Source: a bacterium UBP15_UBA6099
GTDB taxonomy: Bacteria > UBP15 > UBA6099
Direction: 5' to 3'
Assembly: GCA_002435745.1 (NCBI GenBank)
Contig: DIWT01000004.1
Span: 19,096-83,095, forward strand
Length of the DNA: 64,000 nucleotides
The notes beneath the pieces were generated by a model. That model made no database searches and was not told where the DNA came from. It worked only from the letters and a program-made list of their open reading frames with translations. Positions 2,946-30,174 of the stretch are shown here, one piece after another. The translations under genes were made by a program, and so were the position numbers. Each line of letters opens with the position of its first letter. Position 1 is the stretch's first letter.

Positions 2946-3773
2946 ATGTCTGTCGTAAACACCAACATTTCCGGTCTGATAGGACTGAACAATCTGAGGC
3001 TGACAAACCTCGGATTGCAGACGTCGCTTGAAAGGCTGTCGTCGGGGCTGAGAATCAATCACGCCTCGGACGACCCCAGCGGTCTTGCCATCGCCAAGGG
3101 GATGGAAGCGCAGATAGGCGGCATCCGCACCGCCGTGCAGAACGCCGAGGACGGGATCAACCTGATCCGCACCGCCGACGGCTCTCTGAGCGAGACGCAC
3201 GACATCCTGCTTAGGATGCGAGACCTCGCGGTGCGCGCGGCCAACGAAGCCACGCTCACTCCCGCGGATCTCAACAGGCTTCACAACGAGTTTGTAAGCC
3301 TGATCGCGGAGATCGACCGCAAGTCGGATGCCGTCACTTTCAACACGAAAGTTCTGTTCGACGGCACTTTCGCAGGAGGAGAGGTGCTTCAGGTCGGCCC
3401 GGACAACGGCGCTACTTTCCAACTAACCGTGTCCATTCCTGACCTTGATTCAACAGGGCTGGGGATCAACGCCGCGTCGCTGTCGCAGGTGGCAAACGCC
3501 CAAGCCGCCATCGACTCTGTCAACAGCGCCATCAACCAGATATCCGACGTGCGCGCGAACCTCGGCATACAGGAACGCCGCCTCGGCCACATCATCGACG
3601 ACCTGAAAGCGGCCGATATAAACATCTCCGCCGCCAAGAGCCGCATCTACGACGCGGACATGGCAGTCGAGATAAGCGAGTTCACCCGCCTGCAGATACT
3701 CCAGCAGAGCGGCACGGCGATACTCGCTCAGGCCAATGCGCAGCCTCAGAGCGTGCTGCAACTTCTGAAATAA
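2946..3773 (+). CDS. fliC: Flagellin, short form (275 aa), copy 1
   Basis: The conserved flagellin N-terminal segment (LERLSSGLRINHASDDPSGLAIAKGMEAQIGG...QNAEDGINLIRTADGSL) and C-terminal segment (ANLGIQERRLGH...RIYDADMAVEISEFTRLQILQQSGTAILAQANAQPQSVLQLL) are both present. The RBS is AAGGAGGAAA. Confidence 0.9.
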   Translation: MSVVNTNISGLIGLNNLRLTNLGLQTSLERLSSGLRINHASDDPSGLAIAKGMEAQIGGIRTAVQNAEDGINLIRTADGSLSETHDILLRMRDLAVRAANEATLTPADLNRLHNEFVSLIAEIDRKSDAVTFNTKVLFDGTFAGGEVLQVGPDNGATFQLTVSIPDLDSTGLGINAASLSQVANAQAAIDSVNSAINQISDVRANLGIQERRLGHIIDDLKAADINISAAKSRIYDADMAVEISEFTRLQILQQSGTAILAQANAQPQSVLQLLK

Positions 3774-3985: not shown

Positions 3986-4813
3986 ATGTCGGTAGTAAAC
4001 ACAAACATTTCCGGTCTGATAGGGCTGAACAACCTGAGGCTGACCAACCTCGGGTTGCAGACATCTTTGGAGAGGCTTTCGTCCGGGCTGAGGATAAATC
4101 ACGCGTCGGACGACCCCAGCGGACTTGCTATAGCAAAGGGCATGGAGGCGCAGATCGGCGGCATCCGCACCGCCGTGCAGAACGCCGAGGACGGGATTAA
4201 CCTGATCCGAACGGCAGACGGCTCGCTCAGCGAAACGCAGGACATCCTTTTCAGGATGCGCGACCTCGCGGTGCGAGCGGCAAACGAGGCCACGCTCACT
4301 TCGGCGGACCTGACGAGGCTCAACAACGAGTTCAACAGCCTCATGGACGAAATTGATCGCAAGTCGGACGCCGTTACGTTTAACACCAAGGGGCTGTTCG
4401 ACGGCACTTTCGCAGCAGGACAGGTCCTTCAGGTCGGCCCTGACAACGGAGCCACTTTCCAGTTGACTGTGTCCATCCCCGATCTCGACGCCGCCGGACT
4501 CGGAATCAATACGGCTTCTGTGGGAGTGGTGGCAAACGCTCAGTCGGCGATCGACTACATAAACAGCGCGATCAATCAAGTGTCCGACGTGCGCGCCAAT
4601 CTAGGCATTCAGGAACGCCGCCTCGGCCACATCATCGACGACCTGAAAGCCGCAGACATCAACATCTCCGCCGCCAAGAGCCGCATCTACGACGCGGACA
4701 TGGCAGTCGAGATAAGCGAGTTCACCCGCCTGCAGATACTGCAGCAGAGCGGCACGGCGATACTCGCTCAGGCAAACGCTCAGCCGCAGAGCGTGTTGCA
4801 ACTGCTTCAGTAG
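3986..4813 (+). CDS. fliC: Flagellin, short form (275 aa), copy 2
   Basis: The N- and C-terminal blocks are the same as copy 1, while the central ~100 residues diverge. Confidence 0.9.
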   Translation: MSVVNTNISGLIGLNNLRLTNLGLQTSLERLSSGLRINHASDDPSGLAIAKGMEAQIGGIRTAVQNAEDGINLIRTADGSLSETQDILFRMRDLAVRAANEATLTSADLTRLNNEFNSLMDEIDRKSDAVTFNTKGLFDGTFAAGQVLQVGPDNGATFQLTVSIPDLDAAGLGINTASVGVVANAQSAIDYINSAINQVSDVRANLGIQERRLGHIIDDLKAADINISAAKSRIYDADMAVEISEFTRLQILQQSGTAILAQANAQPQSVLQLLQ

Positions 4814-5029: not shown

Positions 5030-5857
5030 ATGTCGGTAGTAAACACAAACATTTCCGGTCTGATAGGACTGAACAATCTGAGGCTGACGAACCTCGGATT
5101 GCAGACGTCGCTTGAAAGGCTGTCGTCGGGGCTGAGAATCAATCACGCCTCAGACGACCCCAGCGGACTTGCCATCGCCAAAGGGATGGAGGCGCAGATC
5201 GGCGGCATCCGCACAGCAGTGCAGAACGCCGAGGACGGGATCAACCTGATCCGCACCGCCGACGGCTCTCTGAGCGAGACGCACGACATCCTGATGAGGA
5301 TGCGAGACCTCGCGGTGCGCGCGGCTAACGAGGCAACGCTCACATCCGCCGACCTGACGAGGCTCAACAACGAGTTCAACAGCCTCATGGCCGAGATCGA
5401 CCGCAAGTCGGACGCCGTCACGTTCAACACGAAAGTTCTGTTTGACGGCACGTTTTCCGCCGGACAGGTGCTTCAGATCGGTCCGGACAACGGAGCCACT
5501 TTCCAGTTGACCGTGCAGATTAACGACCTCGATTCCACAGGTCTCGGAATCAACACGGCTTCAGTGGGAGTGGTCGCAAACGCCCAGTCGGCGATCGACT
5601 ACATCAACAGCGCCATCAACCAGATATCCGACGTGCGCGCGAACCTCGGCATACAGGAACGCCGCCTCGGCCACATCATCGACGACCTGAAAGCGGCCGA
5701 TATAAACATCTCCGCCGCCAAGAGCCGCATCTACGACGCGGACATGGCAGTCGAGATAAGCGAGTTCACCCGCCTGCAGATACTCCAGCAGAGCGGCACG
5801 GCGATACTCGCTCAGGCAAACGCTCAGCCGCAGAGCGTGCTCCAGCTTCTTAAGTAA
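5030..5857 (+). CDS. fliC: Flagellin, short form (275 aa), copy 3
   Basis: Same conserved termini. The central region is closest to copy 2. Confidence 0.9.
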   Translation: MSVVNTNISGLIGLNNLRLTNLGLQTSLERLSSGLRINHASDDPSGLAIAKGMEAQIGGIRTAVQNAEDGINLIRTADGSLSETHDILMRMRDLAVRAANEATLTSADLTRLNNEFNSLMAEIDRKSDAVTFNTKVLFDGTFSAGQVLQIGPDNGATFQLTVQINDLDSTGLGINTASVGVVANAQSAIDYINSAINQISDVRANLGIQERRLGHIIDDLKAADINISAAKSRIYDADMAVEISEFTRLQILQQSGTAILAQANAQPQSVLQLLK

Positions 5858-5942: not shown

Positions 5943-7898
5943 TTATCTTTCGTTCACTGCGAATTGAAGCCCTTTGAGACGTTTGCGGAGCGCCGCCATC
6001 TGGCGCGCGTGCGCCTCCGAACAGTTTATCTTTATGTCCGCGCCTTTGCGGGAAAGAGATTCGAGCATCCTGCCGAATGCCTCAGAATCCAGACGCGCCA
6101 AAGGCGCAAGGTTTATGTGAACAGCCTTGACGGCTATCTTCTTTTCGTTGAGCGTGTTAATCAGTCTGCGCATGGTTTTCTCTTTTACAGAGCCGCGAAG
6201 GTAAACCGAAAGCTCCGCCTCTCCGCCTCTGTTTTCGAGGAAAGCCCATGCTTTGCGGAGTTTAAGGAGGGCAGTGGCGCGGGCGGCGGAACACGCGGCG
6301 GCGGCGACCTCAGCCGGCTCCATCCTGAACCGGGTGACTATCGCTCGCGGGTTGTGGGGATGGAACTCCCTCTCGTATCTCATCCGCGCCGCGCTCGCCA
6401 TGAGCCAGACCGCCGAGTTGGCTATGAAATGCGCCGGGTTTCGCGCCCCGAACTTTTCGGCGAACATCGCCTCTATGCGTTCAGCTTTCTCTTTCATCTG
6501 TTTTTCCGGGGCGAGCCATTTAAGGGCGGTCAGCGCGTGACGGTATGCTTTGCATCTGCGAACGGCGGTTTCATATCTCGCCGCCATCATCGGGTCTCCG
6601 CTCTTGTAATGAGGGGAATTCAGCCCCTGAATCATGGCCTCGCCGACCCTGAGTATGGACGGGCCAAGCTCGCGGAACTCGCGGGCGAACGCTTCTTTAG
6701 TCGTCACCGCGCTTTCCTCCCGCGTGAAGTGCGGGTGCTTGAACCACAGCATGTGTTGCCCGTGCCATTCCTCATACGGCACGTCGTCCAGCAGTAGCCC
6801 TTGCTCCTTGTATTCGAGGTAGAGTCTAGTCTGCGGCAGGGGGCCGAGCTGCATGAACTGCGTGAAGTCCGGCTTCAGGCTTATCGCGAAATCGATGTCC
6901 TCGTTGATGCTCTCTTTGTCGTGATGTTCAAGGAAAAGGATGGACGATGCCAGCACGAATATCCCGTTCGCGCGGAGTTCGGCGATGAGCGCCTGAACGT
7001 CGATTCCTTTGGTTTTCTCGAACAGGTTCCGCTTGGACTCGACGCCTATCCACACGTAGTTGACGCCCAGCGCCATCATGTTGTCCACGCCGAACGCCGT
7101 TATCGCCTCTGCGGACGAGAAAACGCTGAAGTTGAACGGCCGGTTGTGCTCGCGCATGAGCGCCAGCAGTTCCATCGCTCTGTCTTTGTGAAGGAGAAAG
7201 TTCTCGTCCATCACGAAGAAGTCGTTTGTCTTAAGCTCGTCCGCGAGCCGCACGCACACGTCGAATATGTCTTTGCCCGTTTTCAGGAACGGGGTGTATT
7301 CCTTGTCGTAGAAGTGGGACGTGCAGCAGAACCGGCAGGCGTTCGGGCAGCCAACGCCGGGCACTAGCACCGCGCCCTGTTGCGTGAACGGAAGCCCGAG
7401 AATCCTTTTGTGGTCCGCGGCGGGCATCGCCGGGTGCTTTATCGGCGCGTTCATGTCCTCTCCCAGCAGATTCCTCAGCTTGCTGATTCCCTCTCCGGGC
7501 AGAACATGGTCGCAGTCGATCAAAGTCTCGATGTCGGGGATTCTCGAACCGTGGCCTCCGAGGATTATTTTCGTCTGCGGCGAAACCTCTCTGATTATCT
7601 CCGCCATCCTTCGCGCTTTCACGAAGTTCGGGGCGATGAAGGAAATGCCCACGTAGTCGTAGCCTTTGGCAAGCTCCTTGCGAAACTGTTTTATCGATGG
7701 GAAGTCGAGCACAGTGGTGGGAGTGGACAGGTTCTCCGCGATGAAATAGAGGCCGAAACTCCTGTGATTGTATCTGAGCGAGAAAATGCCTTGCTCGCGG
7801 GTCACCTGATTGTGGAACAGTTCGAGTTTATTTTCCTTGCGGCCATAGGCGTCGTCTACGCCGAACGGCCTGAATACCGATGTAAGCAGTAATTTCAT
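5943..7898 (-). CDS. B12-binding-domain radical SAM protein (class B, BchE-like family; function unknown)
   Basis: N-terminal Rossmann-like B12-binding region (GISFIAPNFVKARRMAEIIREVSPQTKIILGGHGS), then the radical SAM cluster motif GCPNACRFCCTSHF (CxxxCxxC). 651 aa. Confidence 0.8.
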   Translation of the reverse strand: MKLLLTSVFRPFGVDDAYGRKENKLELFHNQVTREQGIFSLRYNHRSFGLYFIAENLSTPTTVLDFPSIKQFRKELAKGYDYVGISFIAPNFVKARRMAEIIREVSPQTKIILGGHGSRIPDIETLIDCDHVLPGEGISKLRNLLGEDMNAPIKHPAMPAADHKRILGLPFTQQGAVLVPGVGCPNACRFCCTSHFYDKEYTPFLKTGKDIFDVCVRLADELKTNDFFVMDENFLLHKDRAMELLALMREHNRPFNFSVFSSAEAITAFGVDNMMALGVNYVWIGVESKRNLFEKTKGIDVQALIAELRANGIFVLASSILFLEHHDKESINEDIDFAISLKPDFTQFMQLGPLPQTRLYLEYKEQGLLLDDVPYEEWHGQHMLWFKHPHFTREESAVTTKEAFAREFRELGPSILRVGEAMIQGLNSPHYKSGDPMMAARYETAVRRCKAYRHALTALKWLAPEKQMKEKAERIEAMFAEKFGARNPAHFIANSAVWLMASAARMRYEREFHPHNPRAIVTRFRMEPAEVAAAACSAARATALLKLRKAWAFLENRGGEAELSVYLRGSVKEKTMRRLINTLNEKKIAVKAVHINLAPLARLDSEAFGRMLESLSRKGADIKINCSEAHARQMAALRKRLKGLQFAVNER

Positions 7899-8168
7899 TG
7901 TGTAACCTCATCTCCGCCGGGGACGCTGACTGCGGATGCGCGTCCGCCGAGTGTCATAATGATAGCGCCTGTGACACGAATGTCCATAGAAAAGAATAAT
8001 GGTTTATGGGCTTTGTAGCTTCTGAACAAAAAGACAATAGTGAAAATACAATTCTGCGTTATTAAGATGGGAACAACAGGAAAACAATATTTCTCACCAT
8101 TGACAATAAGTGAATTTGGCATTAATATTGGCACCTAATCTGAATCAGGCTTTTCATACCCAGCCGCG

Positions 8169-8750
8169 ATGGGGAGTGTAGTTTTGAAAAAATATTCTAA
8201 AGAAAAATATGGCAATACGTTGCTTCAAATCGAAGTGTTTATACCAAAGAGATTGACAAATCTAGGTAAGCTTGTCGAACTTCTTGAAAACATGCTTGAT
8301 TTCAGAAGAGCGAAAGAAGATCTGATTTGTCGAGCAAATGAAATATTTGAGCAGACAGAATGGGGCAATGAAGGAATAAAGAATATAAAACAGGCTAAAA
8401 ATAGAATTAAACAGATAGAAAAATGCATTCATGGATATTCTATTTATGAGGTTGACGGGGCTTTCGAGACTTCATGCGACATGAAGACCAGCAAAATAAG
8501 AAAATCGGATGTGAGGATTTGTGAAGAAAGAACAATGGTTGTTAGAATGCTTGCATACGCCGATCCAACCGAGGAGGAAAAGAAGGATAACGTTGATTTT
8601 TTCAATACGAGAAGCGTTGTCGACGCGCTTTTAGTTGCAAATGAATATTTGGCATTTAAGATCGCAAGCGATGTTGCTGAGGAGGATGAGATTTGGGTAA
8701 CAGCAAGTAAAGTATGGTCAAGTATCTGGAAAAAACATAGCGATGACTAA
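8169..8750 (+). CDS. Hypothetical protein (193 aa), first gene of the AT-rich island
   Basis: Long ORF in AT-rich DNA with Lys/Glu-rich, low-GC codon usage. I recognise no motif and the start is uncertain (ATG at 8169, no clear SD). Confidence 0.45.
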   Translation: MGSVVLKKYSKEKYGNTLLQIEVFIPKRLTNLGKLVELLENMLDFRRAKEDLICRANEIFEQTEWGNEGIKNIKQAKNRIKQIEKCIHGYSIYEVDGAFETSCDMKTSKIRKSDVRICEERTMVVRMLAYADPTEEEKKDNVDFFNTRSVVDALLVANEYLAFKIASDVAEEDEIWVTASKVWSSIWKKHSDD

Positions 8751-8848
8751 AATACTGGAGATTGGAGAGTATGACATAAATTGAATAGTGGGCGGCGCAT
8801 GGCTGATTTCACAATGGATTTAGTATCATTCGGAATAATTTAAAGACA

Positions 8849-8877
8849 TTGACAAAGAATCGATTAATGTCTTAAAT
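8849..8877 (+). promoter_or_regulatory. Candidate sigma-70 promoter (TTGACA-17-TTAAAT) overlapped by an inverted repeat AAGACATT...AATGTCTT, upstream of the precursor-peptide ORF
   Basis: Read directly. The -35 matches consensus 6/6 and the -10 matches 4/6 with a 17-bp spacer. The palindrome arms (8843-8850 and 8865-8872) bracket the spacer, suggesting an operator. Confidence 0.4.
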
Positions 8878-8931
8878 TTTAAGACAGAATAAATGTATGA
8901 AAAATGAAATATAATATAATGGGGGGCTAAA

Positions 8932-9078
8932 ATGTTTGAGGACGATAAGGGATTGATTAACAATAATGAAATCGAAAATGATACACTGGAATTGGAATGG
9001 GAAGTTGCTGTTCCAGTTGATAGGTCAAGAGTAAGCCACATGTATTGTTTTAAAAACTGTTCCGTTAACTCTAATTAG
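8932..9078 (+). CDS. Candidate RiPP precursor peptide, 48 aa: MFEDDKGLINNNEIENDTLELEWEVAVPVDRSRVSHMYCFKNCSVNSN
   Basis: Not in the ORF track because it is under 60 aa. ATG at 8932 is preceded by GGGGGG 5 nt upstream. It has an acidic leader-like N-terminus and a C-terminal core with two Cys plus Ser/Asn. It ends 111 nt upstream of an rSAM-SPASM enzyme that carries an RRE. Confidence 0.55.
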   Translation: MFEDDKGLINNNEIENDTLELEWEVAVPVDRSRVSHMYCFKNCSVNSN

Positions 9079-9189
9079 AATGGTTAGGGAGAACATCAAA
9101 CTGAAATCTTCTTGAAGGAGTGATATACTTTTTTCGAATTTAAATATGAAGGAAAAGAAGTAGCAAAACAGACAGTTAGAACAACTTTA

Positions 9190-10503
9190 TTGTTACATCA
9201 CTCTTATGCTGTTCCTCAAAATGTATCAGTTGTTAGAAAAGACGATGTTATTTTGGTAATTAATCCACAAACAGCTAATTGGCTGGTGCTAAACGATATT
9301 GAATTAGAAGTATATTTTTTGCTCGCAGAAGGAATAACAATAAAAAAGGTCATAGAGAAGATTTCTAAAAAAAGCAACTGTAATCAACATGCCTCTTCAA
9401 TTGTCAAAAGATTTCTTGCTCAATCGGAAGCTAAACAATTCAACAAAACTGTTGGGACTGTGTTCGCAGATTCATTTGGGATGTATGTTTTTCTAACATT
9501 TGACTGCAATCTGAAGTGTAGTCACTGTTTTCTATACGATAAACCACGACTCGGAGATCCTCTTGAAATTGAACAATGGAAAAGAATACTCATTGATTTT
9601 CAGCTTGCCGGAGGAGAAAAGATAACATTATCTGGAGGGGAACCGACACTTTTTGATTCCTTTGCAGATATCCTTGTTTTTGCACATGGCATTGGATTGA
9701 AAGTGACATTATTGACAAATGGCATGATTTTGCATTCGGAACTACTAGAATTATATTCTAACAATGTAGATGAACTCCAGATTAGCCTCGATGGACCGGA
9801 AGAGATTAGTCACGAGATGATAAGGGGAAAGGGAACTTACTTTAAGACATACTCAAACATAAAAAAAGCGTTAGACAAGGGCGTTATGGTTACTATTGCC
9901 ATGACGCCAACTTTTGAGACATTTCCATTTTTCGAAGAGCATTTTGTTCGATTTGCGAAATCTTTACTTAATGAATACTCAAATGTAAATGTTAAATTGA
10001 CACAAAAGCTTCTTCGATCAAAAATGTCGATTTATTCGGATACGGATATGAATAAATATTACGCAAAAGGAAATAGACTGATTAATAATCTTTATGAGGA
10101 TTATTCCATCAATGCGTTTTATTTAGACCACCCTGTGAATACAATACGACGCAATTGTGGTTATGGCGAGATATCAGTTATTCCAGACGGAACCGTGTAT
10201 TTATGTAGTAGGATTTGTGATTTGAAACCAGTTGCAAATTTAAAGGAATTAAAAATGGTAAACGTGATACAAATTGCACGAGAGGAGAAAGAGAGGGCTT
10301 CAGTGGAGAATATCATCCCATGTCAGCATTGTTGTTTAAGGTATATCTGTTCTGGTGGTTGCAGAATAGACGACATCCCTGATTTTTGTAATGGACAATT
10401 GACTGTAGATTGTCCTGAAGAAAGGAAGCAACAAATATTTGACATGATGATAGAATCAAACAATATGTATTTCAATATAGAGTATAAACCAAATAATGAA
10501 TGA
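9190..10503 (+). CDS. Radical SAM/SPASM-domain peptide-modifying enzyme with N-terminal PqqD-like RiPP recognition element
   Basis: The N-terminus (VILVINPQTANWLVLNDIELEVYFLLAEGITIKKVIEKI) is PqqD/RRE-like. The rSAM motif is FDCNLKCSHCF (Cx3Cx2C), with GGEPTLF present. The C-terminal Cys cluster CQHCCLRYICSGGCR is typical of SPASM auxiliary-cluster domains. Confidence 0.8.
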   Translation: MLHHSYAVPQNVSVVRKDDVILVINPQTANWLVLNDIELEVYFLLAEGITIKKVIEKISKKSNCNQHASSIVKRFLAQSEAKQFNKTVGTVFADSFGMYVFLTFDCNLKCSHCFLYDKPRLGDPLEIEQWKRILIDFQLAGGEKITLSGGEPTLFDSFADILVFAHGIGLKVTLLTNGMILHSELLELYSNNVDELQISLDGPEEISHEMIRGKGTYFKTYSNIKKALDKGVMVTIAMTPTFETFPFFEEHFVRFAKSLLNEYSNVNVKLTQKLLRSKMSIYSDTDMNKYYAKGNRLINNLYEDYSINAFYLDHPVNTIRRNCGYGEISVIPDGTVYLCSRICDLKPVANLKELKMVNVIQIAREEKERASVENIIPCQHCCLRYICSGGCRIDDIPDFCNGQLTVDCPEERKQQIFDMMIESNNMYFNIEYKPNNE

Positions 10504-12898
10504 AGAACATAAACATAAAAGCATATTAATTATATTTATAAATTGGGCTCATCAGCCTAGGATCAGGATAGTCCAGCGAACATATGCTGCTAGAAACAGC
10601 CCCTCTCCCAATGCAATAAAAGATATTGATCATATCAATCCATCATTGATTGCGCAATTTCCTGACGATCTTGACAAAAAGTTGTTGGGTTGGCTGATGG
10701 TGCCTCACAAAGCATTGCTTCCAGACCCGGTCAGGGTCAATGATATACCTGTTGGAATAATCAATGAATACATAAAGCGCAAGCGTGCCTATTATTCTCC
10801 TTCAGGAAAAAACAAATCCTTAAAAAGAATATATTCTGTAGATATTGACATCCCTAATGTTGGTGTATATTCTTGGAGTATCAATGAACGAAATCTAATT
10901 TTGAGTAGTAGTTTTATTGGCGACGATATGGTTATCATTGAGAAACATCCTATTATGATAATCTCAAGAACAGAAAACAATAATTATGTTGGTATTCCAT
11001 ACGCAAGGGTAAAACACAACGATGGTTATGTGCCTTTGTTTTCTTTTAGTAAGGAAGCGACATTAACACTGCTAAGTCAATTAATTAAATGTGCAAGATC
11101 AGAAGATTATCTTTTGTGGTATTTTCCTGACAACATGTATGAATTGTCATTATCGATTGAAACACTTATAAACGATGGTTGGGATATCGAATATGATGAC
11201 AAGAAAAGAGTTGTAAAAACGACTCGATGGAATATGAAAGCAAATGATAAAACCGATTGGTTTGAAATTGATGGAGTTGCTCAATATAATGACAGCACAT
11301 TGTCTATATCAGAAATGCTTGCGGCATTGAGAAAGAGGTCGGCTTTTGTTGCGTTAGAATCAGGGGGTATAGCGGTTCTTCCTTCAGATTGGATAAAAAA
11401 TATTATTCCAATGGAACCATATCTCTCTGCAAATATGAGAATATCCAGATCATTCGTTGGATTAATAAGTGCGTCAACAAGCATCAATTCAGAGAATAGT
11501 ATTAGTTACAAAATAGCAAGAAAACTTATCTCAGCGCAAAACAATTATGAACCGGTATTATGGGATGGTAAATGTCTGAAACCATATCAGAATTGTGCTG
11601 TAAATTGGCTTAATGAAGCATATAAACAAAACATTGGATGTCTTCTTGCGGATGAAATGGGATTGGGTAAAACCATTGTTACTCTTGCTCACCTGTCTTT
11701 ATTTAAGGGAGATCATCTTATAGTAGCTCCAGCTTCAATCATATCTAATTGGATTCATGAAATTGAAGTAAATTTACCTAACGCAATGTGGTCTCTATGG
11801 GGATCAAAAGAAGAACAATCTGATTCTTCAAGAACCAGCATATATTTAATGAGCTATCAAACCATGCTTAGAAACATAGATGCGATAACTATGAAGCGTT
11901 ATATGGTAGCAGTATTCGACGAATCACAGTATTTAAAAAACTCATTTTCGATGACGGCGAATGCAGCAAGGAAAGTTAAATGCAATCAAGCTATCGCATT
12001 AACAGGAACACCAATTGAGAATAATGTATCGGAGTTGTGGAGTCATTTGAACCTTGTTGCGCCGAATTGGCACAATAATCGAAGGAATTTTGAGACTATT
12101 TGTAGCGAAGCAACCAAGAGTGATGCCTCGTTGATTCATCTTAGAAAAGCTTTGTCTCCATTTATATTGAGAAGAACTAGAAGTGATGTTTTAAAAGATT
12201 TACCTGATTTGAATATCGAGATAATAAGATGTGAGTTGAGTGAAGACCATCTAAAGCTCTACAAAAAATGGATGATATCAGCAAGAAAGGCTTTTTCTGA
12301 CCCTGAGCATAGAACAAGAAAAAAAGGTGCGGTGTTAGAAGTGTTGTTAAGATTGAGGCAAATCTGTTGTGACCCGCTTTTGATAACACAAGACTATGAT
12401 GGTGATGTTGTTGTGTCAGGAAAAACTGAAGCAATATTAAATGCTATTATTGTGATTTCTGAATATGACAAATTATTAGTGTTTTCACAGTTTTCATCAT
12501 ATTTGGAGTTATTAAAAACCTTACTAGATAAGCATTTTGTGAATAATTTACTATTGATCGGAACTACTGGCAACAGAGATGATGTGATAAAAGAATTTAA
12601 AGAATCAGAAAACACAAATGTATTATTAGCAAGTCTTAAAGTTGGAGGCGTCGGATTGAACTTAATAGAAGCTGCTAACGTAGTATTATGTGATCCATGG
12701 TGGAATCCTGCTGCAGAGATGCAAGCATGGTCAAGAGCATATAGAATGGGGCAAAAGAAAAATGTAAATGTTATAAAATTTGTGTGTAAAAACACTATAG
12801 AAGAACGCATATTGGAGCTTCAAGAAAAAAAAGCTACACTGAATCAATTTGTGCCAGAAAAAATATCAAGCAAAGAAATTATTGAATTATTGAAATAA
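10496..12898 (+). CDS. SNF2-family (Swi2/Snf2, RapA/YwqA-like) helicase/ATPase, 800 aa
   Basis: Motif I LLADEMGLGKT, motif II VFDESQYLKN (the DExH-like box of SNF2), motif III LTGTPIENNVSELWSHLNLV, and C-terminal AWSRAYRMGQKKNVNVIKF (SNF2 motif VI). About 350 aa at the N-terminus are unassigned. The start overlaps the rSAM stop by 8 nt, which implies translational coupling. Confidence 0.85.
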   Translation: MNEEHKHKSILIIFINWAHQPRIRIVQRTYAARNSPSPNAIKDIDHINPSLIAQFPDDLDKKLLGWLMVPHKALLPDPVRVNDIPVGIINEYIKRKRAYYSPSGKNKSLKRIYSVDIDIPNVGVYSWSINERNLILSSSFIGDDMVIIEKHPIMIISRTENNNYVGIPYARVKHNDGYVPLFSFSKEATLTLLSQLIKCARSEDYLLWYFPDNMYELSLSIETLINDGWDIEYDDKKRVVKTTRWNMKANDKTDWFEIDGVAQYNDSTLSISEMLAALRKRSAFVALESGGIAVLPSDWIKNIIPMEPYLSANMRISRSFVGLISASTSINSENSISYKIARKLISAQNNYEPVLWDGKCLKPYQNCAVNWLNEAYKQNIGCLLADEMGLGKTIVTLAHLSLFKGDHLIVAPASIISNWIHEIEVNLPNAMWSLWGSKEEQSDSSRTSIYLMSYQTMLRNIDAITMKRYMVAVFDESQYLKNSFSMTANAARKVKCNQAIALTGTPIENNVSELWSHLNLVAPNWHNNRRNFETICSEATKSDASLIHLRKALSPFILRRTRSDVLKDLPDLNIEIIRCELSEDHLKLYKKWMISARKAFSDPEHRTRKKGAVLEVLLRLRQICCDPLLITQDYDGDVVVSGKTEAILNAIIVISEYDKLLVFSQFSSYLELLKTLLDKHFVNNLLLIGTTGNRDDVIKEFKESENTNVLLASLKVGGVGLNLIEAANVVLCDPWWNPAAEMQAWSRAYRMGQKKNVNVIKFVCKNTIEERILELQEKKATLNQFVPEKISSKEIIELLK

Positions 12899-12899
12899 A

Positions 12900-13475
12900 T
12901 CATAGCGGTTTGTGCCAGTTTTTGTATATGCCGCCGTAAGCGCCGGTGTCGTAGAGGTGGGCGATGACGAGGGCGACGGCGTTTTTGAATCCGGCGTCGC
13001 CGGAGATTGCGAAAGCGAGCGGGCCTGTAGCAGCGGAATAGTAATAGACTACGGACGCATGGGCGTTGTTCGGGACGGATGGGGCGGATATGACCGCCGC
13101 CGGGTCGCCGGGGAGCACGATATTGATTTTTGCTCCGAGAGCTGACGCGATGAATTTTAGCAGGTCGGGTTCGAAGCCGCGCGCGACGCCGTATTCATCC
13201 CTGAAGCACATGGGAGGGCGTTCGCAGTCCACCGCCGCGGCGATGATGCCGGAAGCGCGAGCGGCGCGCAACGTCTCGGAGTCCCCTGCGGCCAGTTCGA
13301 CATCCGCTGCGAGAACGCTTTGCACGGGGTCTCTGGCGGTGGCGGCGGGAACGGTTTCCGAGGGGACGGCGGACGGATCTTGACCCCGGGGGCATCCGGA
13401 AATCAGGACGGCAACTGCCGCCATAACCGCCAGCGCCGACGCGCGTTTCAACCTGTTGTGTTTCGGTTCTATCAT
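12900..13475 (-). CDS. Lipoprotein, solute-binding-protein family 3-like but short (191 aa)
   Basis: Signal peptide plus lipobox (LISGC). DEYGVARGFEPDLLKFIASALGAKINIV and the C-terminal GAYGGIYKNWHKPL resemble the N- and C-lobes of amino-acid ABC transporter SBPs, but the protein is about 70 aa too short. Confidence 0.45.
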   Translation of the reverse strand: MIEPKHNRLKRASALAVMAAVAVLISGCPRGQDPSAVPSETVPAATARDPVQSVLAADVELAAGDSETLRAARASGIIAAAVDCERPPMCFRDEYGVARGFEPDLLKFIASALGAKINIVLPGDPAAVISAPSVPNNAHASVVYYYSAATGPLAFAISGDAGFKNAVALVIAHLYDTGAYGGIYKNWHKPL

Positions 13476-15646: not shown

Positions 15647-15913
15647 ATCTTCTTCTCCTTAACTAACAATCGCGCCGACCTGATTTCCGCGCGTTGCAAC
15701 CAAACGAGCGCGCTAATTAATACTAATGAAAAACTCTCCGGCCAACAACACGCGTCGCGGCAAACAACCGTCCGCGCCTCTCGCCTCGGCTCATCCAGCG
15801 TTTATGCTCAAACGTTTTTAATGGTATGCAGCAGTTTGTGTTGACGCGTGATTTAAGTGAAGAGCGGGAGAAACATTCAGTCAGGCATATCGAACGAAAG
15901 TTCTTATCTAAAC

Positions 15914-18484
15914 TCATTTATTAATTGACATGTTATAAAAAACACGACTGTCCTCGGCGCTTAGCACAGTATCGTAAAGGCCGATGTCTTCGCCTTCGTG
16001 CTTATTGACGCCTATATAAATTAGACTGGAATCTTCGTATCGTTTAAACTTATAGACAGCGTCATTCATCAATGCGCTATTGAATACTCCAAGGCTTACC
16101 AACAACTCGAACTCTTTCATAGTCAGGCCGGTTACTTTCTTGAACAAACCCGGCTCCAGTTGCGTGATGACATCCTTCAGACATCGCTCTCGATAATCGG
16201 TCAAATACATAAAGATTGGCAAACGCGTGGCGAACTTGATAAGTTTTTCCTGAATCTGCTTCCGCAAGCTTTTGTATTCCTTTTCCTCCTCGGTGAGCTT
16301 CTTCTTTTCCTTTGTGGAAAGCTCTTTGTCATTTGCTTCCTTTCTCGCCTTTTTCACGGCTTCCGACTTGTTGATAATAGTCTCGATGTCCTGATTGAGG
16401 TTGCGAAAGCCTTCAATTCTCATTAGCGCATCCATAGCGGCTTTGTTGCTCATGAGCCGTTTCAGGGCTTCGTTATCCACATTAACCAGCAAAGCGCTTT
16501 CCCAGCGCCTCGCCAAAAGAGTTGCTGTAGTTCCACTCATCGCCATATCCAGAATGCCTGCGGCATTGATCTCTTTCATTGAACTGCCGTCATAGGCTAA
16601 CACTGGAAGAAAGTTTATAAACTCCGCCACCTTCTTTTCGGGATTGGACTCATCGACATTCAGTCGGCAACTGTAATCGGCGATCTGCCGCAAAGCTCTG
16701 TCCGGCGCGAAATCAAAGACATAGCATTCCTCTTTAATGATTTGCTCCCGATTCGGCGCTGTGTTGTCGGGATTCCTGATTGACCAAGGTGATTGCACGC
16801 GGAAAGCAGCCTGAAAATAGGTCTCGGGACTGGACGAATTCCGCAACATGAGGATGCCGGTCCACGGCCTTACCGTGACTCCTGTGGTCAGTTTGCCGCA
16901 TGACAGGGTAATTGTTTTGGTTGCTAAGGGATCGTCCATGGCCTCCTGCACGGGCGGCAAAGCGGCAACGCCAATACCGGCGTCGCTTCCCGCCGCAACG
17001 ATTACTTCGTAATCGCGATAGAACTTATTCTGTTTCTTCGCCATAAGGTTGCGCATTGCGTGACACGAGGCAACACTGGGCAGAAACCAGAAGGTGTGCG
17101 ATAAAACATTCAGTAATCGCGCATCGGAAAACGGCATCGGCGGTTTTTGAGCGCCCAGTTTCAAGTTGTCAATATTTGTTGCCGAGAATGAGCCGCGTAT
17201 CAAATCAAGCCACTTCTGCACTTCATCCGTGTACGTAAATTTCGCCTTGTTTCCCGCCCCGGTAGCGGAAAAAAAAGTGTTAAGATCGAACTCATTGAAC
17301 TCGCCCTGCATGGCGATTTCGCGTATCGAATCGGGCAGTTGATAGGTCATTAACACCATTCGAGGAAGCGCCGCGTATGGATTGTCCCCGCCTGTCCATT
17401 CCTGCTTGGCCCGCTGCTCGTCCGAATACGTCCAGTTAAAAATCTGCTCCTCGATGAATTCGCCGGACGCAATGGCCCTAAACGGCGTGCCGGATAGATA
17501 GAGATATGCATTCGTGGTAATCGGCATAATCTCTTCGTCAAAATCCTCAATGCCGGCGCCTTCTCCAAACTCGATTTCTTTCTTGTCCTCCGCCGCAAAA
17601 AGCTCTCTGGCGTTTTCGCGCCACGCGCCGTAGTGATACTCGTCAAGGATGACACAATCCCAGTTGGTCTCATGCGCCCATTCATTCTTGGTCTTGAGCC
17701 CCCCGGTGCTTTTGTTCTTGCCAAGGTGATCCTGAAAAGAACCGAAACAGACGAAAGGCTTCTTCTTGTCCGCGTCTTCGTATGATAAACCGCCCGGCGA
17801 GATAAACTGCCACCCTTTGAAATCAATATGGCATTTCAAGTCTTCTTCCCATGCGTTCTGCACTGCGGGCTTGAAGGTCAGCACAAGAACCTTGCGCCAG
17901 TCCATTTTCTTAGCGAGCTGATAGGCGGCAAAGGTTTTGCCAAAGCGCATTTTAGCGTTCCATAGAAAGCGCGGCGACTTATCCTTGTTTTCCTTTCTGA
18001 AACTCTTGAAATAAGCGACGGTCTTTTCCACCGCCGCTTCCTGTTCCGGTCGCATCTTGAAATCAAGCGAACGGTTTTCCTCGTTCATTTCACCAGTTCT
18101 CAGAGCAATGACCGCCGCTTTTACCTGTTTTGCCGAACATTTGAACCATTCCCCTTTGGGATTTTTGACGCCGATGGCTCGTAAGCGACGGTGAACATCA
18201 TGGTCGGTGAAGACCGTGCCGTCATTGCGCATTGCGAATTCTTCAAGGACGATCCGATACGGCGGTTTTCCCGGCCTCAATGTCGGATATTGCTGTTCCA
18301 CGCGCGTCCGGGCGTCCGCTAATGTATAGCCGACTTTGAGCAATCCCGCGTATTGAGGATTTGTGTCCTCGTAGGCGTAGATGGTCGGTTTGGAATCCGG
18401 CCGCTGAGGGAAGAAATTATCAGGTTTCCTCGGCATTGTTTCCCAGCTTCTTTTTAGTTTTTGCGGGCGGAAGAAAGTTGTCAC
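15914..18484 (-). CDS. Defense-type helicase: N-terminal T5orf172/GIY-YIG-like domain fused to an SF2 (Type III Res-like) DEAD/DEAH helicase, 856 aa
   Basis: IYAYEDTNPQYAGLLKVGYT is a GIY-YIG/T5orf172-like beta-hairpin. The Walker A is AKMRFGKTFAAYQLA and the DExH box is VILDEYHYGA. About 450 aa at the C-terminus are uncharacterised. An alternative start lies at 18436. Confidence 0.7.
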   Translation of the reverse strand: MTTFFRPQKLKRSWETMPRKPDNFFPQRPDSKPTIYAYEDTNPQYAGLLKVGYTLADARTRVEQQYPTLRPGKPPYRIVLEEFAMRNDGTVFTDHDVHRRLRAIGVKNPKGEWFKCSAKQVKAAVIALRTGEMNEENRSLDFKMRPEQEAAVEKTVAYFKSFRKENKDKSPRFLWNAKMRFGKTFAAYQLAKKMDWRKVLVLTFKPAVQNAWEEDLKCHIDFKGWQFISPGGLSYEDADKKKPFVCFGSFQDHLGKNKSTGGLKTKNEWAHETNWDCVILDEYHYGAWRENARELFAAEDKKEIEFGEGAGIEDFDEEIMPITTNAYLYLSGTPFRAIASGEFIEEQIFNWTYSDEQRAKQEWTGGDNPYAALPRMVLMTYQLPDSIREIAMQGEFNEFDLNTFFSATGAGNKAKFTYTDEVQKWLDLIRGSFSATNIDNLKLGAQKPPMPFSDARLLNVLSHTFWFLPSVASCHAMRNLMAKKQNKFYRDYEVIVAAGSDAGIGVAALPPVQEAMDDPLATKTITLSCGKLTTGVTVRPWTGILMLRNSSSPETYFQAAFRVQSPWSIRNPDNTAPNREQIIKEECYVFDFAPDRALRQIADYSCRLNVDESNPEKKVAEFINFLPVLAYDGSSMKEINAAGILDMAMSGTTATLLARRWESALLVNVDNEALKRLMSNKAAMDALMRIEGFRNLNQDIETIINKSEAVKKARKEANDKELSTKEKKKLTEEEKEYKSLRKQIQEKLIKFATRLPIFMYLTDYRERCLKDVITQLEPGLFKKVTGLTMKEFELLVSLGVFNSALMNDAVYKFKRYEDSSLIYIGVNKHEGEDIGLYDTVLSAEDSRVFYNMSINK

Positions 18485-19280
18485 CGGTCACCACGCCGCG
18501 TCCGGTTTTCCGCTCCAGTTCCAGCCTCGCCTTTTTTGCGATTCTTCCGCCTTTTCTGCCCGCCTGCGCATTTTCATCCATGCCGGTTGCTTCAACGCTC
18601 TCCGCAATCTGGCGGGTGGAAAGCTCCGCTAAAGCTGTAAAAATCAGTTCCGCCTCGCTCATGTGGTCGCGTAGGTTTTGAGTTTTGAGGTCCTTTATCT
18701 GCTTGTGTTTCTTGACCGAAACCCCGCTCCATTCTTTGTGAATTATATTGGTCAGAATGGCGTATTCGTCTTCGCCTTTAATCTCGTGGTCTTTCCAGTA
18801 ATCGGTGAGTTTATTGCGGGTTTCCTGCCCCATCATCCGCTGCTGAATCCATTTTTCGCTTCTGCCGCTCTGTTGCCAGTAGTCGCGCGCCCGGTCAAGG
18901 GATCGGGCCGGATCGCTCATGTCCTGAATGCGCTCGTAACCCGCTTTGGCAAGCCATAGCTTGATGGGTTCCGCTCTGGGACTGGGAACCGACTGTATGA
19001 TTCGCAGAAGAGCCTCCGGGCCGGCCGCGTCGGTCAGGTATTTTTTCCCGTCAGCGGCTTCCATTTTCAGTTGGTGACAATTTGTCACCGACTGATTTCC
19101 CTCTTTCTTGAGGCGTTCTTTCAACTTGTTCCAGTACTTCCGGGCAGTCTGATAATCCGGCTGCTGAATCAGCGCGGCGATGATATCCACAACGGAAAAC
19201 AACCATGTTTCTGTCTTTTCATCATAAATCCTGCGGATTTTAAAGTTTTCAAAAACCGCAAGCGCCTTTTCTTCATTCAT
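18420..19280 (-). CDS. Bro-N domain protein, DinD-like (DNA-damage-inducible protein D family)
   Basis: The N-terminus FENFKIRRIYDEKTETWLFSVVDIIAALIQ...KLWLAKAGYERI is Bro-N-like. The rest resembles E. coli DinD. Confidence 0.6.
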   Translation of the reverse strand: MNEEKALAVFENFKIRRIYDEKTETWLFSVVDIIAALIQQPDYQTARKYWNKLKERLKKEGNQSVTNCHQLKMEAADGKKYLTDAAGPEALLRIIQSVPSPRAEPIKLWLAKAGYERIQDMSDPARSLDRARDYWQQSGRSEKWIQQRMMGQETRNKLTDYWKDHEIKGEDEYAILTNIIHKEWSGVSVKKHKQIKDLKTQNLRDHMSEAELIFTALAELSTRQIAESVEATGMDENAQAGRKGGRIAKKARLELERKTGRGVVTGDNFLPPAKTKKKLGNNAEET

Positions 19281-20781: not shown

Positions 20782-21409
20782 CCTCCAGAAAGTGCGTTAA
20801 CGGGTACTCTTTCACAGGCTCATTTAAGTATGCCTCGTTATTCTCATCGCTGAATATCATTAGTTGGTGTTGCTTGTCTACTAGAAACGAAAGCATGAAA
20901 TCGCGCCGCTTTAGCATGCTACCGTTGACCGGCGACCATTCAGAAAATATAATCGGTCGCGGATTGTTTCCCACGGTTTTCAGATCAAGCGCGTCTCCAT
21001 GAATAATATTGCGCTCAAGGATATATTTGACCGCATTCCGACATTCATTCCTTGCGCCGAATATAAAAAGGCGCGTGTAGTTCAGATCAAAGATGTCAAA
21101 AAGCCGGTTGCGACATTCCTGAACATTATCCTTAAGAATATCAATGCCGTATATGGAGGACACGGCAAGAACAGCATTCCTCTCGTACTCCAGTTGAATC
21201 TTTTCGTATCGGAATTCAACGACGCGCAATTTCCGTTCCAGAATTTCCGACAGAAAATTGCCCGTGCCGCATGCGGGTTCAAGAAACCGGGATTCGATCC
21301 TTTCTGTTTCCTGTTTCACCAGATCAAGCATGGCGTTGACTTCTCGTTTTCCAGTCAATACCTCGCCATGATCAGCGACCCTCTTCTTGGAGACAACTTG
21401 CTTTTCCAT
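20759..21409 (-). pseudogene. Truncated paralogous MTase N-terminal fragment. It has motifs I-III (FLEPACGTGNFL, IYGIDI, IHGDAL) but no NPPY.
   Basis: The N-terminus parallels that of the adjacent full-length MTase (GEVLTGKREVNAMLDLV vs EVFTPPQLVNQILDLL). The ORF stops before the catalytic motif IV, and its 3' end overlaps the start of the 502-aa gene by 23 nt in another frame. Confidence 0.5.
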
Positions 21410-29546: not shown

Positions 29547-29840
29547 CTATATATCTTTCAGAGGTTTTGCGCTGTTGCATATAGCGGCAATTTCAACATA
29601 TCCGTCTTTGAGCCGATAGACGATTCTGTAATTTTTAAAAATTCTTTCCCTGATATTTTTATCTTCATATTCTGACAGAGCGCGGCCGGCCAAAGGGAAA
29701 TCCGGAATAGATTCAACGATTGCAATAATGCGTTTTGCGAAAAGAGCCGCATAATATTCGGAGTCTCTGGAAATGAATTCGCAGACGTCTTCAAGATCGG
29801 CAATGGCTCCCGGCGCCCATCTTATTCTTTTGATATCCAT
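29547..29840 (-). CDS. RelE/ParE-family type II toxin
   Basis: 97 aa with a RelE/ParE-like C-terminal half (IVYRLKDGYVEIAAI). It overlaps the upstream small ORF by 19 nt. Confidence 0.65.
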   Translation of the reverse strand: MDIKRIRWAPGAIADLEDVCEFISRDSEYYAALFAKRIIAIVESIPDFPLAGRALSEYEDKNIRERIFKNYRIVYRLKDGYVEIAAICNSAKPLKDI

Positions 29841-30170: not shown

Positions 30171-30174
30171 GAGG

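Follow-up and report, generated by a model that had tools for sequence, protein, structure and literature searches.

The closest described relatives of the peptide–enzyme pair analysed here are CteA/CteB (thermocellin), SkfA/SkfB and StsA/StsB. In each, a short precursor made of a leader and a C-terminal core with Cys is encoded directly upstream of a radical SAM enzyme with an RRE, a CxxxCxxC motif and a SPASM domain, and these enzymes are the best sequence and fold matches of the one at our locus. The PqqA/PqqE and MftA/MftB/MftC pairs belong to housekeeping redox-cofactor pathways with dedicated downstream enzymes. They combine a SPASM radical SAM maturase with a precursor whose C-terminus is invariant, and their product is intracellular, with no export machinery. 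RiPP precursor/radical SAM pairs are usually read as antibiotic, signal or cofactor pathways. A different setting has been computationally predicted for the VMAP/FtsH ternary conflict systems, where the target of a radical SAM-SPASM enzyme is a stand-alone peptide with an intracellular role (Kaur, Burroughs, Iyer, Aravind, eLife 2020, PMC7159879); these systems have peptides of their own (FxSxx and other types) and vWA-MoxR and AP-ATPase partners, hold no SNF2 or RdrB-like gene, and have no reported phage-borne copies.

We analysed a 64,000-nt stretch of contig DIWT01000004.1 from the bacterium UBP15_UBA6099 (the window), where a peptide gene is followed by a radical SAM/SPASM maturase and an SNF2-family ATPase. 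The cassette shares the precursor–maturase layout of the sactipeptide and ranthipeptide systems, but it has no transporter or protease and an obligate SNF2 partner, its peptide core is nearly invariant across phyla, orphan precursors occur in phages, and its cross-link is a predicted one. It resembles the PQQ and mycofactocin pathways in its SPASM maturase (PqqE is among the matches), its invariant precursor C-terminus, its lack of export machinery and a product that would remain intracellular; unlike them, it is a mobile cassette linked to enzymes that act on DNA and nucleotides. With the VMAP/FtsH systems it would share an intracellular stand-alone peptide beside a radical SAM-SPASM enzyme. 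Most of its relatives resemble RADAR (RdrA ATPase and RdrB adenosine deaminase) in having an RdrB-like deaminase beside a large ATPase; this ATPase, however, is an SNF2 helicase rather than RdrA, and beyond the RADAR pair these relatives also have the peptide, the radical SAM enzyme, an M42 peptidase and a HIRAN-like protein. Since the peptide is almost always followed by the radical SAM and SNF2 genes, and since phages carry lone copies of it, the peptide system is probably an undescribed phage-defence-type system and not an ordinary antibiotic cluster. We found no description of the peptide/radical SAM/SNF2/RdrB-like combination in the full-text literature searched, which leaves most subscription journals outside, and an earlier description is possible.

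The precursor peptide and its maturase

The peptide gene occupies positions 8932–9078 of the window, from an ATG at 8932 to a TAG at 9076–9078, and encodes 48 amino acids; it lies on the forward strand, as do the three other genes of the island and the promoter-like, Shine-Dalgarno-like, leader and core segments described below. An earlier note on this DNA had quoted the same reading frame, which is present in the sequence, and had called it unannotated. The exact peptide sequence is found on eight contigs (NCBI, JGI, Logan and ENA sources), where it is called but nameless, and the ORF is therefore unnamed rather than uncalled because gene callers predicted it in other assemblies. The peptide has zero matches in Pfam, NCBIfam and PADLOC. 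The G-rich ribosome binding site proposed for it can be read from the sequence as a Shine-Dalgarno-like run of six G (8921–8926), 5 nt before the ATG, and the closest relative, locus L001, has AGGAGG at the equivalent place.

The coding evidence is strong. Across the last 28 codons of 68 nucleotide versions, which were counted as distinct and are not phylogenetically independent, variability is 0.43 at third positions versus 0.18 and 0.15 at the other two, and the peptide's dN/dS is about 0.16. R33, Y38-C39-F40-K41, C43 and N46 (the N at −3) are invariant in 68/68 versions while being written with all their synonymous codons, R with all six. The tail of the family reads R-[VI]-G-x-M-YCFKxCxxNxN-COOH and ends in N in all 34 distinct cellular tails. 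The amino-acid sequence is kept from Campylobacteraceae to Bacteroidales and Desulfamplus, and its core is far more conserved across phyla than the maturase. We conclude that 8932–9078 is a real gene under strong purifying selection. The conservation check set beforehand for the precursor-peptide call also supports it: dozens of loci, spread over different phyla, keep the ORF, both Cys and the C-terminal Asn residues beside a homologous RRE/SPASM radical SAM gene. The reverse-strand ORF over the same DNA, previously judged probably spurious, is unnecessary given the codon-position signal of the forward frame, but it is not positively refuted; reverse open stretches of at least 60 aa overlap the peptide gene in 18 of 39 loci, and are so common there that their presence is uninformative either way.

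Two conserved segments define the layout of the precursor. The predicted leader recognition motif, L19-E-L-E-W23 (8986–9000), follows a family pattern of [ILF]-x-[FL]-x-W that we derived from the alignment and from per-position counts, with W in 62 and F/L/I in 65 of the 68 versions. The conserved core, R33-V-S-H-M-Y38-C39-F40-K41-N-C43-S-V-N46-S-N48 (9028–9075), is the predicted modification site, as judged from the residues that are invariant across the 68 versions. Some details given earlier for this layout have to be changed: the two Cys are spaced C-x3-C (C39 and C43), with three and not four residues between them, and the proposed VPVD junction is not kept in relatives. The distance of 111 nt to the radical SAM gene holds when measured to the TTG at 9190, but the open frame reaches back to 9124, close behind an AAGGAG (9115–9120), with no canonical start before 9190.

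The radical SAM/SPASM enzyme (9190–10503) shows all three features by which a peptide maturase is recognised. Pfam Radical_SAM matches it with an E-value of 5.9e-22, and its cluster motif CxxxCxxC is present as CNLKCSHC, whose C106, C110 and C113 are invariant in 30 homologs. The SPASM pattern, C-x10-G-x4-C followed by C-x2-C-x5-C-x3-C and a final C, is complete, and all of its residues (C323, G334, C339, C378, C381, C387, C391 and C408) are invariant; PF13186 is precomputed for many of the homologs. The third feature is an RRE-like domain at the N-terminus. In an AlphaFold2 model (mean pLDDT 90.5), strands at 13–17, 20–25 and 30–34 precede helices at 36–46, 51–62 and 65–81, the arrangement of a PqqD-like winged helix that would bind the leader, and Pfam PqqD gave no match to the window's maturase. 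The best Foldseek matches are SkfB, CteB and SuiB, with full-length alignment to the RRE-bearing CteB and SuiB. Among NCBIfam models, StsB (NF045574) scores best over residues 26–417, but its 110 bits lie below the curated cut-off of 625, and we therefore reject StsB-family membership and treat the maturase as a separate family.

A precursor with Cys donors lies directly upstream of this enzyme as a rule: in a peptide-anchored metagenome scan, the radical SAM gene is directly downstream in 60 of the 63 loci that extend at least 1.7 kb beyond the peptide, and both Cys are invariant. By analogy with the described enzymes, we infer that the chemistry is thioether cross-linking; its type and the acceptor residues named below are guesses.

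The SNF2 ATPase, its neighbours and the acquired island

The third gene encodes an 800-aa SNF2-family ATPase/helicase (10496–12898), whose start overlaps the radical SAM stop by 8 nt. In the same scan, radical SAM and SNF2 genes both follow the peptide in 46 of the 49 loci with at least 4.2 kb downstream of it. Among genome matches anchored on the radical SAM gene, Bacteroides, Prevotella and Desulfamplus show this triad again; in a Treponema locus, no peptide was seen beside the radical SAM and SNF2 genes, and a Campylobacteraceae sequence with peptide and radical SAM genes ends before SNF2. The peptide, the RRE/SPASM radical SAM enzyme and the SNF2 ATPase are a conserved three-gene core with near-obligate linkage.

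Known helicase-based defence systems account for only part of the SNF2 protein. Its core scores 299 bits with DpdE and 271 bits with ZorD in PADLOC, over the ATPase core alone (residues ~350–790), and no PADLOC model matched the cassette beyond the generic radical SAM and SNF2 cores. We rejected membership in Zorya, Dpd and DISARM, as only the helicase core matches and ZorABC, DpdA-C and DrmABC are absent from the island. Compared with ZorD, DpdE, DrmD and the HLTF-type HIRAN-SNF2 proteins, the likeness lies in this helicase core and, in relatives, in the co-occurring HIRAN-like protein, whereas the N-terminal ~355 aa, presumed to be the peptide-binding part, have no assignable fold.

Most relatives, chiefly gut and rumen Bacteroidales, add an M42 aminopeptidase, a RADAR-type RdrB-like deaminase and a HIRAN-like protein. 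The RdrB-like protein has ~870 aa and matches PADLOC RdrB (E 1.7e-33) and Pfam A_deaminase. It is present in 37 of 46 related loci, or in 42 of 46, in three different arrangements, when either it or its HIRAN-like partner is counted; the HIRAN-like protein travels with it and co-occurs with SNF2. Among the top PADLOC families listed for 69 neighbour ORFs, the RdrA model is absent, the adjacent ATPase being SNF2. In 70 of 73 loci, the gene directly upstream, in the same orientation, encodes the M42 aminopeptidase (40–100% identity), a pattern that could in part be inherited synteny because most of these loci come from one order, Bacteroidales; in some loci, the M42 gene has system genes on both flanks. 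Other neighbours of the cassette include AbiEii, MqsRA and AriA/PtuA/GajA-like ATPases, counted as raw presence with no background rate. No transporter or leader protease recurs among the 69 neighbour ORFs.

In the window, the cassette lies on a 4.9-kb island of about 35% GC with four genes (8006–12904), delimited by its composition profile within surroundings of 55–63% GC. Three related MAG contigs (L192–L194) have the same flanks at 92–95% nucleotide identity with 85 nt replacing the island, and an independent Logan contig carries the same island with both junctions. The island is thus horizontally acquired and strain-variable, while as marks of mobility it shows no tRNA, no target-site duplication and no integrase among its four genes. 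A second variable segment, 2.9 kb away, encodes an Eco57I-type methylase and a T5orf172 helicase. The first island gene, a 193-aa ORF (8169–8750), sits in the slot held by the M42 aminopeptidase in most relatives; it has no Pfam, NCBIfam or PADLOC match and no homolog in any fetched locus, and its cluster has three members, all from this lineage. Among the four genes there is neither the RdrB deaminase of RADAR nor the RdrB-like, HIRAN-like or M42 gene of most relatives, and the case for defence in the window is therefore partly borrowed from those relatives.

Phage-borne precursors and the role of the cassette

Phages carry the peptide without the rest of the cassette. In all 26 IMG/VR loci and in three phage-like metagenome contigs, the peptide stands alone, with no SPASM radical SAM, SNF2 or RdrB gene within 6 kb on either side; the three exceptions in the metagenome linkage scan hold the peptide alone. 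On one phage contig it lies between the portal gene and the next gene. Phage leaders match the variants of host lineages at 70–93%. The last residue, N in every distinct cellular tail, is changed in six of 14 phage tails and retained in the other eight; phage variants include tails ending in CDVNQT and in CSVNLY. All phage copies come from metagenomic viral contigs, as a tblastn search of the phage-type peptide against the isolated phage genomes of INPHARED gave no match. Some phage lineages have unrelated radical SAM-like genes 0.3–0.5 kb from the peptide, which could mature the phage peptide independently. A scan of IMG/VR for the maturase itself returned one full-length relative only, L195, which belongs to a sister clade and has neither SNF2 nor a YCFK peptide.

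The best overall explanation, in which we place moderate confidence, is that an intracellular, thioether-cross-linked peptide works with the SNF2 ATPase in a conflict system, to which phages respond with decoy precursors; both its chemistry and its role in defence are inferred. The signs that point to defence are indirect ones: the variability of the island, the defence genes nearby, the RdrB-like partner and the homologs in phages. The RRE domain of the maturase would bind the leader through its phi-x-phi-x-W motif, and the enzyme would join Cys39 and Cys43 to C-terminal residues by one or two thioether cross-links, most likely at the invariant Asn46 and Asn48, so that a small nested hairpin results. 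Trimming of the leader may fall to the M42 aminopeptidase in most relatives. The product would not be exported but would serve as an intracellular ligand, a switch or cofactor, of the SNF2 ATPase, which, where the partners are present, would work with the RdrB-like deaminase and a HIRAN-like DNA-end binder as a phage-defence-type system. The orphan phage precursors, with their host-specific leader, most of the core and the frequent loss of the last Asn, may serve as decoys, tying up the maturase or the helicase and so weakening the system; this reading is not uniform, because eight of the 14 phage variants keep the last Asn. A more specific proposal, which we put forward tentatively, is that the cross-linked peptide is a built-in regulatory ligand of an SNF2/RdrB-like anti-phage system and that phages have acquired its precursor gene again and again for use as a decoy substrate or ligand, keeping the host-specific leader and often mutating the final acceptor Asn.

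The same cassette could instead make a conventional RiPP, an exported antibiotic or signal of the sactipeptide- or ranthipeptide-like type, with SNF2 providing self-immunity by clearing the compound or stalled complexes from DNA, in parallel to the UvrA-like resistance proteins in clusters for DNA-binding drugs. SkfB, CteB, StsB and SuiB, the closest enzymes in sequence and fold, all make secreted peptides, sister radical SAM clades without SNF2 show typical variable Cys-rich cores, and one sister clade (L022, L023) combines a different Cys peptide with a radical SAM enzyme and a UvrA-like ABC ATPase, which fits DNA-directed immunity. We nevertheless consider this origin unlikely: the cassette has no recurring exporter, C39 peptidase or other leader protease beside it, conservation of a core far beyond that of its enzyme is unusual for antibiotics, the RdrB-like deaminase and the HIRAN-like protein are not partners of the immunity type, and phages with a toxin precursor but no maturase make little sense. 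A secreted-RiPP framing is not supported, given these observations and the obligate presence of SNF2.

A peptide-derived cofactor or housekeeping regulator, comparable to the products of PqqA/PqqE and MftA/MftC, would explain the absent export genes, the invariant C-terminal core, as in PqqA and MftA, and the aminopeptidase, which could release a small C-terminal product. SNF2 would then need the ligand for DNA repair or transcription, with no connection to phages, and HIRAN plus SNF2 is indeed a repair-type pairing, as in HLTF. A housekeeping role is nonetheless quite improbable. The cassette is mobile, has a patchy distribution and varies between strains; it is AT-rich in contrast to its GC-rich host, and related MAGs lack it. 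Nor does such a role fit the RdrB-like deaminase, the association with defence genes or the orphan phage copies. Finally, the ORF could have arisen by chance, or it could be an upstream leader ORF that is translated only to regulate the radical SAM gene; either would be compatible with the short length, the position in the 5′ region of an operon and a promoter-like site that is statistically undistinctive. We give this very little credence, as it is the amino-acid sequence itself that is conserved while synonymous codons vary freely, phages keep the peptide as a stand-alone gene, and the region has no Rfam RNA match.

If an intracellular cross-linked peptide does control an SNF2 conflict system, RiPP chemistry would take part in immune control, and the phage copies would form a new class of peptide-mimic anti-defence genes. 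A RiPP precursor/radical SAM pair is here tied to an SNF2 DNA translocase and, in most relatives, also to the RADAR deaminase effector type and a HIRAN-like DNA-end binder. The known immune systems would gain a new multi-gene member that gut and rumen Bacteroidales commonly carry, and it would offer a testable handle on the control of RdrB-type effectors without RdrA, with about a dozen natural phage variants marking which peptide residues matter.

The promoter region

The promoter-like TTGACA (8849–8854) and TTAAAT (8872–8877) noted earlier upstream of the peptide are present with their 17-nt spacer, but they are statistically undistinctive in AT-rich DNA; the AT-rich 5.1 kb holds 31 such sites versus 19.8 ± 4.4 in shuffles. 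An Rfam scan of the intergenic regions gave no RNA match at E up to 1. The inverted repeat AAGACATT/AATGTCTT is real and belongs to a larger arrangement, a candidate operator (8837–8886) in which three copies of TTTAAGACA surround the −35 and −10 elements (8837–8848 direct, 8866–8879 inverted and 8875–8886 direct). Inside it lies a perfect 9-nt palindrome (8868–8876/8878–8886); an arm of at least 9 nt arises in 2.3% of Markov-simulated 181-nt intergenic regions. In L001, TTTAAGACA lies directly 5′ of its TTGACA, and GTTAAGACA follows its −10. A conserved operator is thus plausible, as the earlier note had suggested, with modest support from two loci. In other loci, the TAAGACA motif is about fivefold enriched in the 200 nt that precede the peptide gene; its two-copy arrangement occurs only in the window and in L001/L085, and the single matches in Bacteroidales loci are probably inherited sequence.

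The peptide gene and its upstream region

The 48-aa open reading frame upstream of the radical SAM gene is present as the earlier note claimed, running on the forward strand from the ATG at 8932 to the TAG at 9076–9078 and encoding MFEDDKGLINNNEIENDTLELEWEVAVPVDRSRVSHMYCFKNCSVNSN, with a putative G-rich ribosome binding site (a six-G run, 8921–8926) 5 nt ahead of the start codon. It had been considered unannotated; an identical 48-aa sequence is already called on 8 public-collection contigs, but carries no name there. Two details required correction: the two Cys form a C-x3-C pair, rather than standing four residues apart, and the supposed VPVD junction is not kept in relatives. The family consensus has an [ILF]-x-[FL]-x-W leader, ~8 variable residues and the core R-[VI]-G-[AHS]-[ML]-Y-C-F-K-x-C-x-x-N-x-N-COOH.

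We characterized the coding signal across the last 28 codons of 68 distinct nucleotide versions of the gene, taken from genome, metagenome and viral loci. Variability is concentrated at the third codon position (0.18, 0.15 and 0.43 at positions 1, 2 and 3), and dN/dS is ~0.16 by NG86, with dS close to saturation. R(-16) and N(-3), counted from the C-terminus, and the Y, C, F, K and C between them never vary; both Cys positions are thereby invariant in homologous loci, as the original call implied. The invariant residues use every synonymous codon, including six for R. The comparison shows a conserved peptide gene that, judged by its codon usage, is translated, and we are nearly certain that 8932–9078 is a real precursor gene. 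The codon pattern rules out a non-coding element or a purely regulatory uORF; Rfam returned zero family matches in the peptide region.

The proposed promoter, TTGACA (8849–8854) and TTAAAT (8872–8877) separated by 17 nt, can be read in the sequence but is not distinctive. A simple scan of the AT-rich 5.1 kb found 31 promoter-like sites, compared to 19.8 ± 4.4 in shuffles, and the promoter match alone therefore carries little weight. The inverted repeat is real and belongs to a three-copy set of TTTAAGACA (8837–8848; 8866–8879, inverted; 8875–8886) that includes a perfect 9-nt palindrome; an arm of this length occurs in 2.3% of simulated intergenic regions. In the closest relative (locus L001, whose radical SAM protein is 53% identical), TTTAAGACA lies directly upstream of TTGACA and GTTAAGACA directly past the -10. 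The two loci lend modest support to a candidate operator around the TTTAAGACA repeats. Separately, 58 of 84 loci, including Bacteroidales examples (L089, L105 and L136), have the 8-mer TATATGCA (extended form GATATATGC) in the 150 nt before the peptide gene; it could be a shared regulatory element or simply inherited sequence.

Linkage to a radical SAM enzyme and an SNF2 ATPase

The peptide ORF is located inside a sharply bounded block of ~35% GC (8006–12904), surrounded by DNA of 55–63% GC. The block comprises a 193-aa ORF with no family match and zero relatives outside the window's lineage, the peptide, the radical SAM gene (9190–10503) and an 800-aa SNF2 helicase, whose reading frame shares its first 8 nt with the end of the radical SAM frame and whose N-terminal 355 aa obtained no assignment. 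Three related MAG contigs (L192–L194) carry the same flanking genes at 92–95% nucleotide identity, with 85 nt where the block would be, so the four genes form an insertion that varies between strains. Neither a target-site duplication nor a tRNA or integrase was found at or in it.

The maturase motifs, CNLKCSHC and a complete SPASM Cys pattern, are invariant in 30 homologs. The best NCBIfam match, to the StsB sactipeptide maturase, scores 110 bits where the cut-off is 625, which places the enzyme outside that family, and its best PDB sequence matches are SkfB and CteB. An AlphaFold2 model using the 30 homologs (mean pLDDT 90.5, pTM 0.84) begins with three strands followed by three helices, the RRE arrangement, and Foldseek ranked SkfB, CteB (full length) and SuiB at the top. 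The Cys motifs, sub-threshold StsB score and fold together indicate a peptide-modifying radical SAM/SPASM enzyme of a separate family, with only ~33 full-length relatives in 5.8 billion clusters. Modification of the peptide by this adjacent enzyme is highly probable.

The maturase frame is open from 9124, right behind a strong AAGGAG (9115–9120), and contains no ATG, GTG or TTG before the TTG at 9190; by eye, the translated 9124–9190 stretch is similar to the N-terminus of the L001 protein. The missing start codon could reflect a non-canonical start, a frameshift or a sequencing error, and the model begun at 9190 still includes the whole RRE. The same 5′ region has a six-T run (9129–9134), and one gene caller picked GTG 9286, which would truncate the RRE.

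The first contexts, reached through radical SAM homologs (L001–L004), all had the order peptide, radical SAM, SNF2. This triad occurs in Bacteroides sp. OF04-15BH, Prevotella sp. 885, Bacteroidales MAGs and Desulfamplus magnetovallimortis; a Treponema MAG has the radical SAM and SNF2 genes with no peptide seen, and a Campylobacteraceae contig ends after the peptide and radical SAM genes, before any SNF2. We performed the reciprocal test with a metagenome scan anchored on the peptide alone. Of the 63 loci with 1.7 kb or more of downstream sequence, 60 had a radical SAM gene after the peptide, bearing out the pairing claimed earlier, and of the 49 with 4.2 kb or more, 46 had both radical SAM and SNF2 genes. 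The peptide is thus near-obligately linked to an RRE/SPASM radical SAM enzyme and an SNF2 ATPase with intact motifs. The cassette is mobile.

The cassette is also frequently linked to three further genes. An RdrB-like deaminase (~870 aa, C-terminal adenosine deaminase domain, PADLOC RdrB E 1.7e-33) is found in 37 of 46 complete loci, accompanied by a 103–128-aa HIRAN-like protein (a weak match, E 8e-4, under the Pfam cut-off); just 4 of the 46 have neither. The pair takes three layouts relative to the core: downstream in either orientation, or upstream in the orientation of the core. In 70 of 73 loci, the gene directly 5′ of the peptide, in the same orientation, encodes an M42 aminopeptidase (40–100% identity), which in some loci sits between the RdrB/HIRAN pair and the peptide; this placement makes it a likely leader-trimming enzyme. 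The window's cassette lacks all three, and the orphan 193-aa ORF holds the upstream position. Other neighbours of relatives include AbiEii, MqsR/MqsA and AriA/PtuA/GajA-like ATPases, and no recurrent transporter or leader protease occurs near the cassette in those neighbourhoods. In locus L117, where RdrB precedes M42, the RdrB-like gene is directly preceded by a 623-aa ORF with no Pfam match (127–1998), possibly an additional component.

The Cys peptides of sister radical SAM clades are different (GCYTQCC and GCFAQCC, for example), and these clades have no SNF2. In gut Bacteroidales, Treponemataceae and Clostridia (L008, L012, L014–L017, L019 and L020), the peptides are 34–45 aa long and lie ~100–200 nt upstream of the radical SAM gene; their leader is [IL]-x-[YF]-x-V, their cores are of the G-C-[FY]-x-x-C-C type, and they look like a separate, uncharacterised RiPP family. 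In Veillonella and Asaccharospora (L022, 5812–9450; L023, 607–5195), a ...QRSQCRTTHKRKDC peptide precedes a related radical SAM/SPASM gene and a UvrA-like double ABC ATPase, the second instance in which a Cys peptide and its radical SAM partner go with a DNA-binding ATPase.

Phage copies and possible function

Phages carry orphan homologs of the peptide. The three metagenome exceptions have the peptide alone, either between a portal gene and the following gene just past the terminase (L130) or beside an endolysin and other phage genes (L151 and L159). An IMG/VR scan found the peptide on 26 viral contigs, none with a SPASM radical SAM, SNF2 or RdrB-like gene within 6 kb; around it lie genes of phage DNA metabolism, for ParB-like proteins, helicases and methyltransferases. 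Isolated phage genomes gave zero matches. In some phage lineages, genes for other proteins lie directly beside the orphan: a 361-aa protein with CSMNCKFC (L172, 6393–7478; phrog_24834, weak Pfam Radical_SAM match), a 302-aa radical SAM protein with CPRGCDFC (L165, 4579–5487; phrog_9298) and a Cys-rich ~290-aa protein with no family match (L151, 6099–6965; also L159 and L189).

The leader motif persists in phage peptides, which match cellular variants specific to particular lineages: L130 and L135 are 83% identical and have a rare ...SDYTGRVGAMYCFKHC... tail in common, L170 and L117 are 93% identical, and L179, from a 32% GC phage, is 70% identical to the Campylobacteraceae peptide (L005). N(-3) is invariant in all cellular and phage peptides, whereas all 34 distinct cellular tails but only 8 of 14 phage tails end in N, with T, Y, A or D as the phage replacements (Fisher p 2.4e-4 for sequences that are not phylogenetically independent). 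This asymmetry favours a competitor that would depend on the leader and on most core residues without requiring the complete set of cross-links; the data would also fit the alternative, a faithful, antitoxin-like replacement. We put counter-defence by the phage copies at about an even chance.

In the mechanism that we propose, the radical SAM enzyme would bind the leader and form one or more thioether bridges between C39 and C43 on one side and, probably, N46 and N48 on the other. The modified peptide would be kept inside the cell to control or assist the SNF2 enzyme, which, where an RdrB-like deaminase is present, may work with it as a phage-defence-type system; phage copies would act as decoys. 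A secreted RiPP with SNF2 as its immunity protein would agree with the maturase's relatives and the UvrA-linked sister clade, but is hard to square with the absence of export genes, with a core that hardly varies, with the RdrB/HIRAN partners and with the phage orphans. The same lack of export genes, together with the invariant C-terminus, suits a housekeeping cofactor, against which stand the cassette's mobility and its presence in phages. On balance, we lean towards the cassette belonging to a conflict or defence system.

As a pair, the peptide and radical SAM enzyme resemble sactipeptide and ranthipeptide systems and have the structural hallmarks of membership, with the chemistry predicted only. 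The whole system resembles RADAR through RdrB only, and Zorya, Dpd and DISARM through the SNF2 core only. The full-text literature searched gave no description of the peptide, radical SAM and SNF2 combination, with or without RdrB; because its coverage is incomplete, the absence of prior description is not proven. The nearest conceptual precedent is the prediction of radical SAM-SPASM-modified peptides in other conflict systems (Kaur et al., PMC7159879).

Other features around the island

The SBP_bac_3 gene (12900–13475, reverse strand) encodes 191 aa in the window, against 198 aa where the site is empty; only 1 nt separates its stop from the SNF2 stop, and its last codons appear to have been replaced by the insertion. 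Synteny with the related MAGs breaks again after 15775, the last syntenic position. Located 2.9 kb from the peptide island, 15776–21409 is a second strain-variable, lower-GC segment. Its genes encode an 856-aa T5orf172-ResIII helicase, a Bro-N protein, an Eco57I-type RM methylase and a fragment of an MmeI-like methylase. The segment resembles a restriction or defence island, and the neighbourhood looks like a defence-island hot spot.

On the other side, three tandem flagellin paralogues of 275 aa each (2946–3773, 3986–4813 and 5030–5857) are followed by a B12-binding radical SAM gene (5943–7898, reverse strand), in the same order as in the related MAGs. Farther away, an AT-rich patch (44% GC) at 29–30 kb contains a ParE-family toxin gene (29547–29840, reverse strand) beside two small unassigned ORFs (29867–30142 and 30127–30420).
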